In this document: positions 887 to 11,374 of the stretch, in pieces
Position numbering within the stretch: the stretch's first letter is position 1
Layout of the letters: each line of letters begins with the position of its first letter
NCBI GenBank assembly: GCA_965195285.1
Contig: CBDAFS010000012.1
Coordinates: 64,001 to 128,000 of the forward strand
Direction of reading: 5' to 3'
DNA: 64,000 nt
Origin: an uncultured Aminicenantes bacterium
Lineage (GTDB): Bacteria; Acidobacteriota; Aminicenantia; UBA2199
Translations under genes and position numbers: made by a program
The notes under the pieces: generated by a model
Database searches by the model: none
What the model was told of the DNA's origin: nothing
The model's input: only the letters and a program-made list of their open reading frames with translations

Positions 887-914
887 TTTAAATTGGCATT
901 AATGGGGTTCAAGG

Positions 915-943
915 TTGACTTTTGGGTTCCACTTAAGTATAAT
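915..943 (+). promoter_or_regulatory. Sigma70-type promoter
   Basis: TTGACT-17 bp-TATAAT upstream of AAGGAG RBS and ATG 977. Confidence 0.65.
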
Positions 944-976
944 TCCATATCTTTTAAAGGAAAAAAGGAGTTGTTG

Positions 977-2956
977 ATGAGAAAAATCAATTTATCTGTA
1001 CTCATTATTTCAATGATCATGGTTGTTGGGATGAATGCATATGCTCAGACTGATGATACTTCGAAAAAGGGGTGTCCGGAGTATATTGATTATTTAAAGG
1101 CAAACAAAGAAATCATAAACTATAACACTTATGGCTTAATTGAAGGCATTGAAGAAGTCGTGCTCAAAATTTATTCCCATAAGGAGTCACAGGATCAACT
1201 TTTAGGGAGCCTGCAGGATTTTTTATATACCCGCTATGAAGTCAAGGAATTTTCCGAAGATCAAATCGTCATTTCCATTTATTTCCCGGTTTCCCGGAAA
1301 ACTGAGACGAAAGCTATTGTTGCCCCGGTAACCGCAAAGGAAATGAAGCCGGAAAAGACACCGGAAACCCGGGAACCTGAGGCCGTGATAGTGATTCTGC
1401 CCCAGCCGGAACCGGAGAAAGAGGACTGCCCCGGCAGGGTGAAAGTCCAGGTCAGGAAGATCGGATATCAGGTTTTCAAGGAGTATAAATATTTTGAGGA
1501 AAGTTTATCATTTGACAGGGATGTTGAATTGAGAACCCAGCTGACCGCCAGTGTTAAAGAGGTGGCGGTTGCTGACGGTGACCGGGTACAGGAGGGCCAG
1601 ATTCTGGTTCGGCTTGATTCCGGTGTGATCGAAAAAGAGATCAAAAGCGTGGAAGAGTTAATAAAAAACTGGAAGACTATTTTATTCAAACGTCAAAACT
1701 GGAAGGTCCGAAGCCCGAGAGCTGAAAAGCAGGCCCAGGAAAAAATCCAGGAGAGTGAAATCCTGCTGGCTCAGAAAATGGAAGACCTGTCCAAAACCCA
1801 GATCAAAGCACCCTTTGACGGCAAGGTGATTTATATAATTCCAGAGGGTGAACCCCTGGAAATCGGTGCCACGGTACTGAGGATGGTGTCCGATAAATTG
1901 ATGAAAGTATCGGTTCCGGTTGTTGATTCAGGATTGTTTTCCCAGGGAATGGATGTCCGGATTTCCTCGACCGAAGTGGAAGGTGAATTCCCGGGAAGGG
2001 TCAGCAAAACCGAGACCGAAACCAAAATAGTATTGAGGAATGAGGATTTGAAATTGTCAGAGGGCATGAAGGTCAATTTCCGGGTTCTGTACAGGGAATA
2101 TGATCAGGCCATGGTGATTCCGGAAAAAGAGGTCTTGAAAGATGATTCCGGTTATTATGTTTTTGTGGTGGATGCCAAACGGGCTGCCCTGCGCAGGCTC
2201 AACGTCGGCGTCATTGAATCCGGAATGGTACATGTGCTTTCCGGGATCAATATCGGTGAGGAAGTGATTGCCACCGGTTTGAATTGCCTTCAGGATCGAA
2301 AGAAAATCAAGGTGATGATCTGGGATGCCGTGCTAGGGAAATTGAGGCCAAGAAAAAAGAAAGAAATCATTGAAGCCCCGGTTATTCAGCCGGAAGAGAT
2401 TGAAATTCCGGTTGAACGGGTCATTAAAAAGAAAAATTATTGGCGGGTTGGCGGCGGACTGGGAGCCTGTATCGGAACCGGCAGTGTGTTCTCTGATGTC
2501 TATGGTAGTTTTGTTCCGGCCGGTTTTATTACCGCTTCCTTCACCATTAACGAGAAGGTTGAAATCTTCTTTTCTACTTCCTATATCACTGCCAGCGGTA
2601 AGGCCACGGAACTGGATGACAAGGTCACTCTGACCATGATCCCGATTTATATCGGAGCAAAAATCCATTTGAACAAGATAAAAAAGTTTACTCCCTTTGT
2701 CGGTGCGGCAATGTCCAGGTACAATACCAAGGAATCATTTCCGGCAGGGAATGAATATCATGAGACCACCAGTTACCGTTCCAATTTTGGAGGTTCGGGT
2801 TTTGTAGGGACCTATTTTCCGATCGGTAAAAAGCTCGATTTGACCGTGACCCTGAAATATGATTTCAGCCAGGTTGCCATGGAAGAAGGCGAGGAAAAGG
2901 TTGATCTTTCCGGCTTCAGGCTGTTGATCGGCGTTACCTATATCCTGGGCCGCTGA
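977..2956 (+). CDS. Secreted RND/HlyD-type periplasmic adaptor fused to a C-terminal outer-membrane beta-barrel
   Basis: Signal peptide (MRKINLSVLII...AYA); lipoyl-like halves VADGDRVQEGQILVRLD and IKAPFDGKV; membrane-proximal domain (SGINIGEEVI); C-terminal ~170 aa of amphipathic strands (TPFVGA, GFRLLIGVTY). Start moved from 893 to RBS-supported 977. Confidence 0.75.
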   Translation: MRKINLSVLIISMIMVVGMNAYAQTDDTSKKGCPEYIDYLKANKEIINYNTYGLIEGIEEVVLKIYSHKESQDQLLGSLQDFLYTRYEVKEFSEDQIVISIYFPVSRKTETKAIVAPVTAKEMKPEKTPETREPEAVIVILPQPEPEKEDCPGRVKVQVRKIGYQVFKEYKYFEESLSFDRDVELRTQLTASVKEVAVADGDRVQEGQILVRLDSGVIEKEIKSVEELIKNWKTILFKRQNWKVRSPRAEKQAQEKIQESEILLAQKMEDLSKTQIKAPFDGKVIYIIPEGEPLEIGATVLRMVSDKLMKVSVPVVDSGLFSQGMDVRISSTEVEGEFPGRVSKTETETKIVLRNEDLKLSEGMKVNFRVLYREYDQAMVIPEKEVLKDDSGYYVFVVDAKRAALRRLNVGVIESGMVHVLSGINIGEEVIATGLNCLQDRKKIKVMIWDAVLGKLRPRKKKEIIEAPVIQPEEIEIPVERVIKKKNYWRVGGGLGACIGTGSVFSDVYGSFVPAGFITASFTINEKVEIFFSTSYITASGKATELDDKVTLTMIPIYIGAKIHLNKIKKFTPFVGAAMSRYNTKESFPAGNEYHETTSYRSNFGGSGFVGTYFPIGKKLDLTVTLKYDFSQVAMEEGEEKVDLSGFRLLIGVTYILGR

Positions 2957-2964: not shown

Positions 2965-3077
2965 TTTATAATAATTTCCAAACTTACAAGTACCAATCTT
3001 CATTTCTTATGTAAGAATTTAAGAATTTGATGGTTCTGGGACAGTCTCGTAGACTTCTCTGACAGAAGTCGCACAAA

Positions 3078-3563
3078 TCATTTTATGAATCTCTCATCAT
3101 CTTTTGTTTTTGAAAGTTTATATATATTTTTCTCAAGCCATCCTATTTTCTCTACTTTTCTTATGTCGAATTCAGGTATATACGGTTTTATATCCAGAAG
3201 AGGGGTTCCATCTACAATATCTACCTCTTGAATATGTAGTATATTATCTTCAATCCTGATAAGACGAACTACAGAGATACCGACCGGATTTGGTCTACTC
3301 GGACCTCGTATTGCAAAAACTCCGTGTACTTCGCTATCCATATATGGTTTTACTTTTAAGGGCATCTCCTTGGATAAATGAAAGTGATATATCAAAATAA
3401 TGTGAGAAAAGCCTTCCAAATCTTTTAAACCCTCGACATATTTTGGAAATAGCTCAACTGTTCCATCAATATTTTTAGCACCTGCAGGTTGTATAGGTGT
3501 TCCTTTAGGTTCTTTAAATTGAGAATGAACAACTCCGATTGGCTTGTACTTTATCTCATTCAT
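3078..3563 (-). CDS. tsaA: tRNA t6A37 N6-methyltransferase TrmO/TsaA family
   Basis: PIGVVHS, GLKDLEGFSHI, GVFAIRGPSRPNPVG and DGTPLLDIKPY motifs. Confidence 0.9.
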   Translation of the reverse strand: MNEIKYKPIGVVHSQFKEPKGTPIQPAGAKNIDGTVELFPKYVEGLKDLEGFSHIILIYHFHLSKEMPLKVKPYMDSEVHGVFAIRGPSRPNPVGISVVRLIRIEDNILHIQEVDIVDGTPLLDIKPYIPEFDIRKVEKIGWLEKNIYKLSKTKDDERFIK

Positions 3564-3734
3564 AATTTTATCTTTTTATATATGCAATTTTCGATAACGA
3601 CCGTATATATTCATTGTTCTTACACCGCCAATTGGTGGTATATAAACAATTGTTTATATTTTTCAACTACAGTTGTACCACATCTATCTAAAAATATCAT
3701 CTACAGGATTCCTTGTTTATTTATAGTATTTATA

Positions 3735-3777
3735 GGGACGTTGCTTGGAAAAGGGGGACGTTGCTTGACATCGTGAC
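3735..3777 (+). repeat. Left end of RAYT-like element: partial copy (3735-3747) plus full 24-bp inverted repeat (3754-3777)
   Basis: GGGACGTTGCTTG-GAAAAG-GGGGACGTTGCTTGACATCGTGAC. The first 17 bp of the full copy are the exact reverse complement of 4726-4742. Confidence 0.85.
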
Positions 3778-3793
3778 ATTTATTTGATATTTT
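3765..3793 (+). promoter_or_regulatory. Putative transposase promoter with -35 inside the left inverted repeat
   Basis: TTGACA (3765-3770)-17 bp-TATTTT (3788-3793) with TGn extension. The predicted +1 falls near ATG 3799. Confidence 0.5.
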
Positions 3794-3798
3794 TTTTC

Positions 3799-4716
3799 AT
3801 GCGTCACCCTAGAATTACTTACAAAGATGCCTTTCACCATGTTATGAATAGGGGAATTAATGGTGAGAAGATATTTGAATCTTCAAAAGATAAAAAATAT
3901 TTTCTTGAATTGGTTTTAGAGAAATCAAAGATTTTAAAAATCAGGATTCTTGCTTGTTGTATTTTAGATAATCACTTTCATCTAATAATTCAAAATTGTT
4001 CAGGTAAGATGAGTGAATTCTTGAAAAGGATAAATAGCCAATATGGATATTATTATAGGAAGAATGTAGGAGGGCATGGATATGTATTTCATGGGAGATA
4101 TAAATCAACATTAATTCAGGAAGACGAATATTTAAAAATGTCACTTTTATATTTATTTCTCAATCCTGTTCGTTCTGGCATCGTATCAAATCCATTTGAA
4201 TACAACTGGTCAAGTATTCAAGAATTGTATTTAGCGAGACGAACCAGAAAACTAACGGATTATAAATTCATAGAGGGATTATTTGGAGACCGAGTGAATT
4301 TAGTGGATAGCTTGAATATTTGGATGAATAAAGAGTTACCAATAGAACAAAATCGTTTTGGAAATTTTTTGGGTGACAATAAATTCCTGCCCAAATCACT
4401 TAATCTATATAATAGAAGGAGAAAAAAAGGAATAAGTCGTAGGATGAGAATTTTTGATCAATATTTTAAAGGAGCCACTCAAATCATATCAGAATTTGAG
4501 AATGAAAAAGGAGTTACGTTGGACAAAGTTGATTTTGTTAGTATAGAAGGTAAGGGATTGAGGGGAGAATTATTGGTGCGATTAAAGGATGAAGGTGGCT
4601 TGAAATATACAGAAATTATTAACTATCCATGGTTTGAATCCTTGAAGTATAATTCTTTAGGTCAGGTCTATAAAAGAACAAAAGTGAAACTAAATAACAA
4701 GGTGAAAATAAAATAA
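3799..4716 (+). CDS. REP-associated tyrosine transposase-like protein (Y1_Tnp, HUH)
   Basis: HHVMNRG, DNHFHL (HUH), GYVFHGRYKS, YLFLNPVRSG (catalytic Tyr helix) and YNWSS motifs, plus a C-terminal extension. Confidence 0.9.
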   Translation: MRHPRITYKDAFHHVMNRGINGEKIFESSKDKKYFLELVLEKSKILKIRILACCILDNHFHLIIQNCSGKMSEFLKRINSQYGYYYRKNVGGHGYVFHGRYKSTLIQEDEYLKMSLLYLFLNPVRSGIVSNPFEYNWSSIQELYLARRTRKLTDYKFIEGLFGDRVNLVDSLNIWMNKELPIEQNRFGNFLGDNKFLPKSLNLYNRRRKKGISRRMRIFDQYFKGATQIISEFENEKGVTLDKVDFVSIEGKGLRGELLVRLKDEGGLKYTEIINYPWFESLKYNSLGQVYKRTKVKLNNKVKIK

Positions 4717-4718
4717 CC

Positions 4719-4742
4719 GTCATACTGTCAAGCAACGTCCCC
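4719..4742 (-). repeat. Right inverted repeat of RAYT-like element
   Basis: GTCATACTGTCAAGCAACGTCCCC begins 2 bp after the transposase stop codon. Confidence 0.85.
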
Positions 4743-4752
4743 ATCTTCATTA

Positions 4753-4770
4753 GGGCCGCTGAGATCCCGA
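4753..4770 (+). repeat. Right copy of 18-bp direct repeat (GGGCCGCTGAGATCCCGA)
   Basis: 17/18 identical to 2947-2964; lies 10 bp outside the right inverted repeat. Confidence 0.8.
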
Positions 4771-4898
4771 ATCGTTTCCCAAAAGGTAGATTTCTGCTTG
4801 TTGGTATAGGAAATAATTTTATTAAGAAAAAAAGAAAAATTCTATTGACATTCTTTTTTTAATATACTATTTATATGGTAGAAACAAAGGAGCTAATA

Positions 4899-5138
4899 AT
4901 GAGTGATATCAAAAAAAAGGATGATACCAAGATCGAAAGCCGCCGTGAATTTATGAAGAAGATTTCCAAATGGTCAAAGGTGGCATTGGCAACGGCAGTT
5001 GGAATTACTACATTCGGTTCCTTAGCCTGTCCTCGTTATAGTGATTATTACGAGTCGGCCGGGTATTGTGATTGGTATGGTCAGGATTATTATACCTACA
5101 GTTCCTACTGTAACTACACCAATTACGGAGATTATTAA
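4899..5138 (+). CDS. Small Tat-leader, Tyr-rich peptide (putative RiPP precursor or lipopeptide)
   Basis: AAGGAG RBS; SRREFMKK twin-arginine motif; hydrophobic stretch ending SLAC; 36-aa tail with 12 Tyr. Confidence 0.75.
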   Translation: MSDIKKKDDTKIESRREFMKKISKWSKVALATAVGITTFGSLACPRYSDYYESAGYCDWYGQDYYTYSSYCNYTNYGDY

Positions 5139-5272
5139 ACCCTTCATTATTAACGTTATTTTTAACTCCCGGTTTTTTCACTTATTAAATCAGTTTTATC
5201 CCTTATATTTTCGTTAGAGAAATTTTCCCCGAAGTATTATCTACATAAAGATTGGATCGAACGTCCCGGAAT

Positions 5273-5809
5273 TCAGACCAGGTCCATACCCATTTCAATG
5301 GCCCGTTCATTGAGGGGAATTAAATGATGATGGCGCTTGGGCAGTGTATCCTTCAAGGCTATCAAAAGGGATTCTTTCTTGACCACATTTTTTAATTTAA
5401 CCAGGCTGCCCAGCAGAAGCATGTTCATGACTTTTACATTTTTCAGTTCATTGGTTGCCTTCTCAACCGCGGGCAGAGCAATAACGGTGATATCGGTTCG
5501 GACCGGGGCTTCTTTGATATGGGTGCTTTCCCAGATCATCATACCACCCTTCTTGACCCGGGGTTCGAATTTTTTCAGAGAGGGCTGATTGAGCACAACG
5601 GCAATGTCATATTCGCTGACAATAGGAGATGAGATGGGCTCGTCGCTGATATTGACCATGCAATTGGCCGTCCCTCCCCGCATTTCCGGGCCATAGGAAG
5701 GCATCCAGCTAACTTCCTTGCCTTCTTTCATGGCTGCATAGGCCAGCAGGGTTCCCATTGAAAGCACTCCCTGGCCTCCGAATCCGGCAAAAATCATTTC
5801 CTGTAGCAT
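5273..5809 (-). CDS. 2-oxoacid:ferredoxin oxidoreductase gamma subunit
   Basis: AGFGGQGVL and PSYGPEMRGGTA motifs. Start corrected to 5809 (TAATG coupling with the beta subunit). Confidence 0.92.
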   Translation of the reverse strand: MLQEMIFAGFGGQGVLSMGTLLAYAAMKEGKEVSWMPSYGPEMRGGTANCMVNISDEPISSPIVSEYDIAVVLNQPSLKKFEPRVKKGGMMIWESTHIKEAPVRTDITVIALPAVEKATNELKNVKVMNMLLLGSLVKLKNVVKKESLLIALKDTLPKRHHHLIPLNERAIEMGMDLV

Positions 5810-8100: not shown

Positions 8101-9819
8101 CTACGGATTGGGGGGGCGCTTGGTACGATCAATGATATTGGTAAAGGGAAAGGGGATTTCAATGCCTTTTTGGTCAAAGGTTTTTTTAATACGGGTTTTT
8201 ATTTCACGGTCAATACCCCATTGTTTGCCGGGAACGGTTTTGGCCAGGATACGGAAATTGATGGACGAATCCCCGAATGACAGAATACCCTGCGGAACCG
8301 GTTCTTCGATTAACAGGGGATGCCACTCCCGGTCCTCATAAATATCGTGACATATTTGTTTTAATACAGACAGCACATTTTCACTGCTCTCATTATAACT
8401 TACTCCAACTTCAATGACGGCTCGGGACCACTGATGGGTGAGGTTCGATACATTGGTAATGCTGCCGTTGCGTATAATATGCAGGGTTCCGTTCAAAGAC
8501 CGGAGCCGGATGGTACGCAGAGAGATATTCTCCACCGAACCGCTTTTTCCGTCAATCTCCGCCACGTCACCTAGGGCCAGCTGTTCCTCCATGAGCATGA
8601 AGAAACCGGCCACAATATCCTTTACCAGTGATTGGGCACCGAAACCAATGGCCAGCGAGACACCTCCTGCGGCCAACAGGAAGGGAGCATAGTCAATGTT
8701 CAGTTCACCCAGTACCCACAGAACGGCCAGAACCCATAGGGTAATCTTGATGATGGAGAGAGTGATGGAGAACAGGGTCTGGTAACGTTGTTTTCGGTGG
8801 CCGGAGATGCCTGTATTCAGATCGATTCTTTTGATTATTCGTTTTCCCATCTGTCGGAAAATCCTGATCAACAGGACAACCAGAAAAAAGGCAATGATGA
8901 TGATGATAATCCCCTTCAGTATTTTTTTCTGGAAATCATTTTGCCGTTGTTTTTTCAGAGAGGTAATTTCCCTTTTTATATCTTGGCTTTTTTGCTTGAA
9001 GGTGTCTATCCGGTTTTCGGACAAATAGATGAAGGTTCTGGTGGTATTCAACCGGGGGATTTCCAGGCCGTTCAGGCGGATTTCCCTGACCTGAGCGGCA
9101 GTCCGGTGCAGCAGCTGTTCGAAGGCATTCTTTGAAAGTTTTGATTTGATTTTTGATTCCCGAATTTCAGCGGTCTTTTCTTCTATTTTTGCTTCCTGTT
9201 CTTTTTGACGGTTTCCCAGGCCTGCCAGTTTTTTGGTCTCACTTTCCAGATCATTGGACAGGATAACCTGTTTTTCCTCCAGCCTTTTGATTCGGGTAGA
9301 GATATTGATGACCTGATTGCCCCTCTGATCGATCTCCTTTTTTTCTTTATCAATTTCATTGGCCCTGTCCAGGGCCCGGACCCTTTCCTGTTCATTTTCC
9401 AGTCTGTTGATCAACAGGGCGATATGATTGATTTCCTTTTGAATGAGCAGGATACTGTTCTCACCGTCTCCGGAGAATTGTCCGAATTTTGACATGATTC
9501 GGTTTCGATGCTCCGGGTGTTCTTGGAAATATTTTAATAAAAAAGGAAAAATCTGGTCCTCTACCAGATTATAACGGTCGATGAGCAGGTTGAATTTTCT
9601 CTTGTTGAAATCGATACGCTCGATCAACTGGTTGGTTCTCTCCAATTTTTCGAATTCGGGAAATTTATTGGGTGCATATTCATCCAGGGTCAATACCTGG
9701 TTCTTCAATTCCCGCAGTTTCAATTCCATTTTTTGGAGCTCCCCGGGAATCCAGCTCTGGGGGAAGAGAATAACGCCGGTCAGTAATAAGCCCAAAAAAG
9801 TTGCTTGTCTTTTTTTCAT
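8101..9819 (-). CDS. MscS-family mechanosensitive channel with long N-terminal periplasmic coiled-coil
   Basis: AGGVSLAIGFGAQSLVKD, GDVAEIDGKSGSVE and GIEIPFP motifs; N-terminal signal peptide. Confidence 0.88.
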   Translation of the reverse strand: MKKRQATFLGLLLTGVILFPQSWIPGELQKMELKLRELKNQVLTLDEYAPNKFPEFEKLERTNQLIERIDFNKRKFNLLIDRYNLVEDQIFPFLLKYFQEHPEHRNRIMSKFGQFSGDGENSILLIQKEINHIALLINRLENEQERVRALDRANEIDKEKKEIDQRGNQVINISTRIKRLEEKQVILSNDLESETKKLAGLGNRQKEQEAKIEEKTAEIRESKIKSKLSKNAFEQLLHRTAAQVREIRLNGLEIPRLNTTRTFIYLSENRIDTFKQKSQDIKREITSLKKQRQNDFQKKILKGIIIIIIAFFLVVLLIRIFRQMGKRIIKRIDLNTGISGHRKQRYQTLFSITLSIIKITLWVLAVLWVLGELNIDYAPFLLAAGGVSLAIGFGAQSLVKDIVAGFFMLMEEQLALGDVAEIDGKSGSVENISLRTIRLRSLNGTLHIIRNGSITNVSNLTHQWSRAVIEVGVSYNESSENVLSVLKQICHDIYEDREWHPLLIEEPVPQGILSFGDSSINFRILAKTVPGKQWGIDREIKTRIKKTFDQKGIEIPFPFTNIIDRTKRPPNP

Positions 9820-10030: not shown

Positions 10031-11374
10031 ATGAAACCAAAAAAGGACATGAAGCGTCGTGGTTTTTTGAAACATTCGGTATTCGGCATGGCCGGATTGG
10101 GTTTGTTGTCCGGTCCGACCGGTTTGAAATGTAATCAGGTCTCTGCAGACCTGAAACCGGAGCCGAAAATTCGGGAGTACCGTACCTTGGGGAGAACCGG
10201 GTTCAGGGTGTCGGATATAGGGGGTGGATTTCTTAAAGATGCGGGTTTGATCAAGGCCATGTTAACATCCGGGGTAAACTATATTGATACGGCCGAGAGC
10301 TACGGCAACCAGAAGGTTATCGGGGAGTCAATCCGGGATTTTGACCGAAAGAAAATATTTATCACCTCTAAACTGGAAATCAAGGAAGATGTCTCCAAGG
10401 AGGGATTCCTGAAGCGGACCCATACATGTCTTGAAGAATTGCAGACCGATTATATCGACTGCATGATGATGCACATGCCCGAGAAGCGTGAAACCCTGAA
10501 AACCGAGGGATTTCATGCTGCCATGGAACAGTTGAAGAAAGAGGGACGCATCCGTTTTGTGGGTGTATCCCATCACGGATCATTCTGGTTTCTCGATCCC
10601 GAAGAATCCATGGAAAATGTGCTCCTGGAGGCCGCTGCAGACGGGCGTTTTGATCTCATGCTGCTGGCCTACAATTTTCTCAAAATGGATGGCGGGCAGA
10701 AGGTTCTGGAGGTCTGCCAGCAAAAACAAATCGGAACCGCCCTGATGAAAACCAAACCGGTTAACACCTACCATAAAATTAAGTCACGGGTTGAGCAGTT
10801 GAAAAAAGAGGGTGAGAAAGTTCATGAACTCTATATGAAAGGGTTGGAACGGTATCAGAAAATAGCCCAGGGTGCCGAGGATTTCATCCGCAAGTATCAC
10901 TTGTCAAATCCGGAGGACATTCGCAATGCAGCGGTTTGTTTTGTGCTCAGCGAGCCCCGGGTCAATACCGTGTGTTGTTCGATGCGAAATTTTGAAGACC
11001 TGGAAAGATTTGTTGGCCTGTCCGGACAGCGTCTGACCGGGAATGACCGGAAAATGCTGGCCGCTTATCAGACTCATTGCGGCCAGCTCTACTGCCGTCA
11101 TGCCTGCGGACGCTGTGAGCCTGTTTGCCCACGGCAGGTCCCGGTCAATACCATCATGCGCTATGATCATTATTTTGTAGCCCAAGGCCGAGAAAAGGAA
11201 GCCATGGAATATTATGCCGCCATCCCCGGTAATAAAGCCGATAGCTGCCTGGAATGTTCCGGTTATTGCGAGGAGGCCTGTCCCTACGGGGTACCCATTC
11301 AGGGTATGCTGTGCATGGCCCATGAGAATTTATCCCTATCCCCTTTTTCCAAGGTGGGGAGTGTCAATTTTTGA
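10031..11374 (+). CDS. Tat-exported aldo/keto reductase with C-terminal 4Fe-4S dicluster
   Basis: KRRGFLK; YRTLGRTG, IDTAESY, ITSK; CRHACGRCEPVCP and CLECSGYCEEACP. Confidence 0.88.
   Translation: MKPKKDMKRRGFLKHSVFGMAGLGLLSGPTGLKCNQVSADLKPEPKIREYRTLGRTGFRVSDIGGGFLKDAGLIKAMLTSGVNYIDTAESYGNQKVIGESIRDFDRKKIFITSKLEIKEDVSKEGFLKRTHTCLEELQTDYIDCMMMHMPEKRETLKTEGFHAAMEQLKKEGRIRFVGVSHHGSFWFLDPEESMENVLLEAAADGRFDLMLLAYNFLKMDGGQKVLEVCQQKQIGTALMKTKPVNTYHKIKSRVEQLKKEGEKVHELYMKGLERYQKIAQGAEDFIRKYHLSNPEDIRNAAVCFVLSEPRVNTVCCSMRNFEDLERFVGLSGQRLTGNDRKMLAAYQTHCGQLYCRHACGRCEPVCPRQVPVNTIMRYDHYFVAQGREKEAMEYYAAIPGNKADSCLECSGYCEEACPYGVPIQGMLCMAHENLSLSPFSKVGSVNF

Follow-up and report, generated by a model that had tools for sequence, protein, structure and literature searches.

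A peptide with a twin-arginine leader and a Tyr-x-Asp/Asn core from an uncultured Aminicenantes bacterium: a probable RiPP precursor unlinked from its candidate radical SAM enzymes

Positions 64,001 to 128,000 of contig CBDAFS010000012.1 (here C12) of an uncultured Aminicenantes bacterium (assembly GCA_965195285.1; here genome G000) form the 64,000-nucleotide stretch of DNA analyzed in this work, hereafter ‘the window’. An open reading frame (ORF) of 79 amino acids at window positions 4899–5138 of the forward strand, stop included, is probably the precursor of a RiPP (a peptide synthesized on ribosomes and then modified post-translationally) that is modified in trans by radical S-adenosylmethionine (SAM) enzymes encoded elsewhere in the genome. 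Four observations carry this reading: the ORF is a real gene under purifying selection; homologous precursors lie beside genes for two radical SAM enzymes, which we call A and B; an orthologous cassette that lacks a precursor is present in G000; and the peptide and B occur together across genomes. A first-pass annotation of the window had described the ORF as an orphan peptide with a twin-arginine translocation (Tat) leader, a twin-arginine (RR) motif, a lipobox-like SLAC and a tail with periodic Tyr-X-Asx units (Asx, Asp or Asn); the translation and the residue positions bear out these sequence features.

A small gene under purifying selection and its family

The gene and its upstream elements are arranged as follows (window coordinates, strand).

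4845..4873, +, promoter-like block: TTGACA (4845–4850), then an AT-rich TATACTATTTA stretch
4887..4892, +, Shine-Dalgarno sequence AAGGAG, 6 nt ahead of the ATG; AGGAG invariant in 7/7 loci
4899..5027, +, leader/signal part, residues 1–43: Lys-rich N-terminus, SRREFMKK, conserved KWS motif, uncharged stretch VALATAVGITTFGSLA
5028..5135, +, core, residues 44–79: Cys44, Cys57, Cys71, 12 Tyr, five Tyr-x-Asp/Asn triplets, C-terminal YCNYTNYGDY
5136..5138, +, stop codon TAA; homologues terminate at the same site or one residue further

In the leader, SRREFMKK spans residues 14–21, and residues 28–43 are uncharged, ending in S-L-A-C with Cys44 as the Cys. The 36-residue tail (residues 44–79) has Tyr at positions 47, 50, 51, 56, 60, 64, 65, 67, 70, 73, 76, and 79, of which six (64 to 79) keep an exact i+3 spacing, and contains an aromatic-X-X core motif in the form of five conserved Y-x-[DN] triplets (YSD47, YCD56, YCN70, YTN73, and YGD76). 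Tyr accounts for 33% of the tail versus 3.7% of residues across the genome’s ORFs of at least 200 amino acids. Among 18,865 six-frame ORFs of at least 40 amino acids, just two have at least five Y-x-[DN] in any 36-residue span: the peptide ORF and a 58-residue ORF on contig C15 that looks non-genic. The aromatic-x-[DN] count exceeded that of composition-preserving shuffles in 23/23 family cores tested, which are relatives and hence non-independent, and which do not include the peptides of genomes G530 and G634; the window peptide’s core has five such units against a shuffled mean of 2.1, a count matched in 1.5% of 2000 shuffles. The order [DN]-aromatic is as frequent as aromatic-x-[DN] in these cores (six in the peptide), an outcome of the period-3 repeat, so that, as far as sequence goes, the functional unit could lie in either register. 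In an AlphaFold2 (AF2) model of the peptide, with a predicted local distance difference test (pLDDT) score of 52.8, helices are confined to the leader (residues 15–36), and the core is not predicted to fold by itself.

The ratio of nonsynonymous to synonymous substitution (dN/dS) is 0.07–0.17 in all 7 pairs with estimable dS, out of 28 pairs (20/28 are saturated at synonymous sites, and 1/28 is identical), and protein identity holds at 61–87% while synonymous sites are saturated. Upstream of the ORF, TTGAC and TATA.TA are invariant in 7/7 aligned loci, and sequence farther upstream does not align; a consensus promoter scan made no call at this block, whose distance from a canonical -10 hexamer is ambiguous. 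In two RNA libraries, metatranscriptome contigs overlap the gene in part, spanning 4986–5275 in one and 4990–5047 and 5119–5411 in the other; the 5′ third of the ORF is uncovered, and one X6 contig joins opposite strands. Because these contigs are strandless and such libraries may contain contaminating DNA, they lend weak support to expression. The first-pass annotation had allowed that the ORF might be untranslated or a truncation of a longer protein, a concern removed by its full length, which is that of its homologues, and by purifying selection.

Judged by sequence, the peptide appears to belong to a rare, unnamed family of metagenomic peptides with an RR leader and an aromatic-x-Asx core. 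Its close homologues, retrieved from among 5.8 billion proteins, form five clusters that are 64–87% identical to it, and the only named one comes from an Aminicenantes metagenome-assembled genome. Cys44, Cys57, Cys71, and the C-terminal YCNYTNYGD are kept in these homologues, and the five triplets are invariant or D/N-conservative. A close-homologue profile searched against 1.84 billion representatives matched 17 proteins at E<=1e-3, one of them at E<=1e-10, and a scan of metagenome contigs added 10 further loci. The family shares an RR leader, a hydrophobic stretch usually followed by Cys, and a core of aromatic-x-Asp/Asn units. RR falls within the first 60 residues in 32/34 members; R15 and R16 are conserved at 90% or more in a 20-sequence family alignment, while the remaining leader drifts in distant members. 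The module YC[ND]G..Q.Y...YC[ND]Y.[ND]Y.D is present in one to three copies in many (distant) members, and 17 to 51 tandem aromatic-x-Asx units are found in P0008 and G520. Contig GC among members ranges from 0.40 to 0.71, and thus several lineages are involved.

In the window’s own genome, the only match to the peptide is the window ORF, apart from a hit on contig C43 (E 1.05) that lies inside an 808-residue frame. In the phylum sample, the close-homologue profile gave, besides G000, just four weak matches (27–57 profile positions, in ORFs of 177–266 amino acids); these are taken as Tat-signal or leader-only similarity. Top ESM Atlas scores of 0.85–0.88, below the 0.9 mark, provide leads only, to a Cys-Xaa-Xaa-Xaa repeat radical SAM target and to a methylamine dehydrogenase light chain.

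Precursors beside radical SAM enzymes and an unlinked cassette in G000

In several relatives, a homologous precursor stands next to radical SAM genes, in the following gene orders.

L027 (metagenome contig): peptide with 24 aromatic-x-[DN] units, A (337-residue radical SAM enzyme), X (285 residues), B as a SPASM enzyme fused to a GT9 glycosyltransferase domain
L031 (metagenome contig): peptide, A, X-like gene, B
G520 (same taxonomic family, other genus): on one strand of a 52.7-kb contig, 241-residue precursor, p228 (228-residue secreted protein), A, B
G527 (another family of the class): B homologue, then directly a Tat-leader Trp/Tyr-rich peptide (L077 9066–9296)
G530 (the family of G527): two tandem Tat-leader peptides (G530:C73:8818–9048 and 9134–9400), ~2 kb downstream of a B homologue

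Over their full length, L027 A and L031 A share 38% identity (E 9e-77), and the B enzymes of the two loci share 36%. The G520 precursor, with 51 aromatic-x-[DN] units, is 45% identical to the window peptide over 71 residues, leader included (E 5e-14). Pfam matches among the cassette neighbors, i.e., a weak trypsin-like domain in G520, an S41 peptidase in G530, and DUF3108 in G527 and G530, include none common to all loci. The worry voiced at first pass that homologues might never co-occur with modifying enzymes is answered by these loci, in which homologous precursors directly adjoin radical SAM/SPASM genes. A precursor beside a maturase is a property of the relatives L027, L031, G520, and G527/G530; in the window genome, the two co-occur only. 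As a separate observation, the G527 and G530 cores are built of Trp/Tyr-x-Asp/Asn units of the form CWYDDWY...WANWWNNP, and the neighboring B homologues are without A.

On present evidence, B is best read, from its sequence, as a SPASM enzyme of the anSME/DynA/DarE/triceptide-synthase lineage. Its profile matches the solved structures of anSME (4k36/4k37, ~2e-49), the triceptide synthase ChlB (6e-19), and CteB (1e-14), and its family numbers 391 clusters (E<=1e-30), whose most specific names are ‘radical SAM’ or ‘SPASM domain’ protein. Scores against the curated cyclophane synthases YhhB (68 bits), GrrM/OscB (66), AmcB (59), XyeB (57), and FxsB (52) are all under cut-off. A is best read as a second, uncurated SPASM-like radical SAM enzyme: it carries a CxxxCxxC motif and eight invariant or near-invariant C-terminal Cys, and the folds nearest to its model (pLDDT 86) are SuiB, CteB, SkfB, ChlB, and anSME, all peptide-modifying enzymes. 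A complex prediction for B with the peptide scored 0.02, a value that counts neither for nor against binding.

Homologues of both enzymes are encoded side by side on contig C9 of the window’s genome.

G000 C9:26785–27765, -, A, 326 residues; 34% identical to L031 A (E 5e-58) and 53% to G520 A
G000 C9:25657–26784, -, B, 375 residues; 34–35% identical to L027/L031 B and 58% to G520 B

G000 B is only 24% identical to the genome’s own anSME, and B is conserved within the genus (94% and 73% identity). Directly upstream of A on C9 lies P154, a homologue of G520 p228 (36% over 92 residues, E 1e-16). Because P154, A, and B match p228, A, and B, the operon P154-A-B of G000 corresponds to the G520 operon minus its precursor; no plausible precursor ORF was found in C9:18000–36000. 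In all four genomes of the genus (g1), the peptide gene is unlinked to the cassette. The earlier statement that the window holds no maturase stands: none of the genome’s 10 SPASM matches falls in C12:64001–128000, and tblastn of the A and B enzymes against the window found nothing. The same 10 matches dispose of the possibility that the genome has no SPASM enzyme at all. The peptide is thus an orphan by position, with no adjoining maturase, and not as to partner, given the P154-A-B cassette on C9.

Across 301 genomes of the class, the peptide family profile is found in eight, namely all 4 of genus g1, G520, G476, G527, and G530, and B (E<=1e-45) in nine, the same eight plus G634; both are absent from the other 292. 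A is present in 4/8 peptide genomes (G000, G401/G484, G438, and G520) and was not found in G402/G502, where B abuts a contig end, in the fragmented G476, or in the B-only genomes G527 and G530. Neither peptide nor A occurs in the 11 same-family genomes of the phylum sample. In G634, ~600 nt upstream of B, a 59-residue candidate precursor (L087 6960–7139) has a Gly-Gly-type leader and the triplets YAN, YMN, and YSN.

With B in 8/8 peptide genomes and orthologous, unlinked enzymes in G000, the earlier reading of the ORF as a trans-modified polycyclophane precursor is supported in part: the small gene is genuine, and its product is very probably a RiPP precursor. The cyclophane nature of the cross-links is putative, as B falls below every curated family cut-off. 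The competing view that the ORF encodes an ordinary small Tyr/Cys-rich secreted protein or lipoprotein, with no radical SAM modification and with cassette co-occurrence reflecting shared ancestry only, is unlikely. It draws on the layout of a signal peptide whose hydrophobic stretch is followed by a Cys, on the presence of Lgt and LspA in the genome, on a 64-kb window devoid of maturases, and on clade-conserved synteny with an envelope gene, the adaptor-barrel gene described below. It does not account for homologous leader-and-core peptides directly beside A/B or B in four separate lineages, nor for a G000 cassette that is intact and conserved and has no other substrate gene; the low-confidence AF2 core, with no predicted fold of its own, also speaks against it. 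The lipobox follows the pattern [LVI][ASTVI][GAS]C, from which the S-L-A-C of the window peptide departs by its Ser at -3. The lipobox is canonical in just 2/34 family members and non-canonical in 32/34, with G, A, or S at -1 in 21/34, counts made by a script whose choice of Cys was imperfect for three or four sequences. Given this non-canonical lipobox, lipidation is doubtful, which leaves the lipid anchor proposed at first pass weak, and the near-universal Cys may belong to the core rather than to a lipobox.

Proposed modification and export, and what weighs on them

For the trans-modified RiPP precursor, the following course can be proposed. The 79-residue precursor would be made from its own promoter, and its Tyr/Cys/Asx core would be cross-linked in the cytoplasm by the A and B cassette at G000 C9:25657–27765, which we take as the probable acting enzymes; the KWS element of the leader may be recognized by them. 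At the five Tyr-x-Asx triplets, the likeliest bond would by analogy join an aromatic ring to the beta-carbon of the Asp/Asn two positions further along, with thioether links from the three conserved Cys as an alternative or addition. Since B lies below every curated cut-off and A has no family, this cross-link chemistry is drawn by analogy only. The leader would then act as a Tat signal and carry the rigid product over the inner membrane, with a cut near Cys44; transport of folded cargo by Tat would suit a polycyclic peptide. SRREFMK (residues 14–20) corresponds to the Tat consensus S/T-R-R-x-F-L-K, and TatC is encoded on contig C45 (234 bits, above cut-off).

Several observations weigh against this reading. 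The peptide matches no Pfam or NCBIfam family at E<=1 or at E<=10. Its gene and the C9 cassette sit on separate contigs, whose geometry puts at least ~94 kb between them, and hence it is co-occurrence and elimination, and not adjacency, that underlie the pairing in G000. The co-occurrence itself comes from few independent lineages, perhaps three to five (g1, g235, g238, and two genera of family f7), and a second peptide lineage, L030 and L032, has no A or B within 13–19 kb. A matches no curated family, and the NCBIfam scores of B are all below cut-off (DynA, 180/450 bits; anSME, 156/349; DarE, 148/650). Eleven other phylum-sample genomes have A homologues (24–35%, tblastn) with no B or Tyr-rich peptide within the 7.6–17 kb examined; A is thus not specific to the Tyr-rich precursor type and serves other systems too. 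The genome also encodes further SPASM enzymes lacking an assigned substrate (PapB-like enzymes on C45 and C12, and others). As for export, a conserved Lys-rich spacer, KISKWSK, separates the RR motif from the 16-residue uncharged stretch, and NCBIfam gave no hit. Pfam TAT_signal also gave none at E<=10 on 3/3 peptides, a neutral outcome, since the model stayed sub-threshold on all six control Tat proteins of the same genome as well (4/6 scored 12–19 bits versus 22.7). Lastly, in L007/G401 the Tyr56 codon of the peptide gene (L007 10001–10240 = G401:C351:4979–5215) is replaced by an in-frame TAG; A and B are intact in the same genome.

This stop codon, together with the unlinked state of the gene in all four genus genomes and the mobile-element insertion just upstream of it in the window genome, would fit a relic, i.e., a precursor gene parted from its cassette, no longer modified or used, and heading for loss. 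Such an outcome is very unlikely. The low dN/dS, with the protein held at saturated synonymous sites, argues against decay, as do the promoter-like block and Shine-Dalgarno sequence that are invariant in all seven loci and the RNA-library contigs over part of the gene. Moreover, the sequence that is otherwise the same as the TAG copy, with Tyr at 56, is a cluster of 17 member sequences.

Of the alternatives we weighed, the most improbable is that the peptide, instead of being a free natural product, serves a periplasmic enzyme as a small cross-linked subunit or cofactor carrier routed through Tat. Its models are the radical-SAM-cross-linked gamma subunit of quinohemoprotein amine dehydrogenase and the methylamine dehydrogenase light chain. 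Thioethers could form between the three conserved Cys and Asp/Asn, B has a weak match (40.5 bits) to the quinohemoprotein amine dehydrogenase maturase, the ESM Atlas lead to a methylamine dehydrogenase light-chain cluster scored 0.85 (under the 0.9 mark), and a GMC oxidoreductase is encoded four genes upstream in L007. Against these points, none of the loci read has a dehydrogenase subunit gene next to the peptide or the cassette, and the long tandem arrays of P0008 and G520 are unlike enzyme subunits.

The trans-modified RiPP reading can be set beside known systems. Among them, anSME is the solved structure closest to B by sequence and has the same SPASM architecture; the genome differs in having a separate true anSME (456 bits versus a cut-off of 349). 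The sulfatase motif, C/S-x-P-x-R, is absent from the window peptide. Dynobactin reportedly carries a Trp1-to-Asn3 link. In darobactin, cross-links are described as joining an aromatic side chain to the beta-carbon two residues on (PMC10125368). The daropeptide enzymes DynA and DarE, along with anSME, are the best NCBIfam matches of B, yet far under cut-offs; the family cores differ from daropeptides in being Tyr-rich with Cys and 28 to 188 residues long versus 7–10, and nothing found implies relatedness to BamA-binding antibiotics. Triceptides, for their part, are described as having aromatic-to-C-beta links on aromatic-X-X motifs (PMC11499958), and an account of a Tyr-C3 to Lys-C-beta link on YSK gives triceptide and daropeptide maturases a common origin (PMC12912966). 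Like the triceptide systems (ChlB with native YDR; MicB with YSK, HAS, and FTK), the window family has aromatic-X-X core units, often repeated, and an anSME-related SPASM maturase with no obvious N-terminal recognition domain. Unlike them, it has Asp/Asn at position 3 throughout, and the window peptide has a Tat-like leader, a second radical SAM enzyme (A), and a precursor gene that is unlinked in the genus.

The proposed course also resembles that of bufferins and DAG-RiPPs, which are described as MNIO-modified in the cytoplasm and exported through a signal-peptide-like leader by the Sec/SPII lipoprotein pathway (PMC13056109). The likeness lies in cytoplasmic modification followed by general export, and in a conserved Cys that immediately follows the hydrophobic segment (PMC13056109). 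In contrast to the MNIO enzymes, Sec-type signals, and canonical lipoboxes described there, the window family has radical SAM enzymes, a twin-arginine leader, and a predominantly non-canonical lipobox. The main text of PMC13056109 makes no mention of ‘radical SAM’, ‘Tat’, or ‘twin-arginine’. In the literature searched, judged in part by titles and abstract openings, no radical SAM RiPP with a twin-arginine leader was found, nor a curated model of one, and no title on RiPPs in Aminicenantes was relevant; the family may nevertheless sit unnamed in published maturase networks. Signal-peptide leaders were found only for MNIO-modified RiPPs.

Tentatively, and with some doubt, we propose that this may be the first RiPP family in which the leader doubles as a twin-arginine signal. 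The cassette would build a Tyr/Trp-x-Asx ladder of 5 to ~50 units in the cytoplasm, the rigid product would pass by way of Tat to the envelope of these uncultivated sediment Aminicenantes, and the enzymes would act in trans after the precursor gene moved beside the adaptor-barrel gene in one genus. The number of constrained peptides, antibiotics included, that come from radical SAM cyclophane and daropeptide RiPPs is rising fast. A Tyr-x-Asp/Asn family and an uncurated second radical SAM partner would extend the known chemistry, and a twin-arginine leader would extend the known logic of RiPP export. Genome mining that demands a precursor beside a maturase would miss the window gene, whose pairing was recovered by co-occurrence profiling. 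The components of a direct test are defined: one 79-residue precursor and two enzymes.

Genomic surroundings of the peptide gene

Upstream of the peptide gene, the window contains the following features.

893..2956, +, adaptor-barrel gene, 687 residues: periplasmic adaptor (MFP, RND-type) fused to an outer-membrane beta-barrel-like C-terminus
2965..4752, no strand assigned, 1.8-kb insert: trmO (3078–3563, -) and a 310-residue Y1/REP-associated tyrosine-transposase-like gene (3784–4716, +)

The adaptor part matches TIGR01730 (105 bits versus a cut-off of 94.9), and the barrel part matches PF13505 below cut-off; an adaptor and an outer-membrane barrel in one protein are an unusual fusion. In L007, L023, L026, and G438, this gene immediately precedes the peptide gene, which converges on a 2-oxoacid:ferredoxin oxidoreductase operon; only in the window genome are the two parted by the insert. 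A direct repeat of ~20 bp, GGGCCGCTGA[A/G]ATCCCGA, flanks the insert at 2947–2966 and 4753–4772. L007 has no insert and one repeat copy, with 94% identity on both sides and an 18-bp overlap; it represents the empty site, and the first-pass prediction that removal of the insert would place the peptide gene behind the adaptor-barrel gene is borne out. As the adaptor-barrel synteny is confined to one clade, it does not by itself establish a functional link, and it is speculation that the adaptor-barrel protein might move the product outward.

In L008, a sulfatase-family gene precedes the peptide gene. Tyrosine sulfation, or a role of the peptide as an anSME substrate, was considered on account of the sulfatase upstream in L007 and L008 and was dropped: the peptide has no sulfatase motif, the true anSME is separate, and the synteny is limited to one clade.

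Other loci of G000 encode further radical SAM enzymes and Tyr-rich products. About 9 kb past the end of the window, G000:C12:137135–138568 encodes a PapB-like radical SAM/SPASM enzyme (160 bits, below cut-off), and an 81-residue ORF just upstream of it could be that gene’s own precursor. Adjacent ScmE and ScmF radical SAM/SPASM genes of a SynChlorMet cassette, both above NCBIfam cut-offs, lie at G000:C39:88146–90411, and an ScmE-like paralogue on C42 is below cut-off. At G000:C14:50645–51577, a 310-residue, secreted-looking Tyr/Lys/Pro-rich protein with YYYY and KKTSPYKK repeats is unrelated to the peptide family. Within the window, 10031–11374 encodes an aldo/keto reductase with an RR-type N-terminus and C-terminal 4Fe-4S motifs, which has a paralogue on C54.

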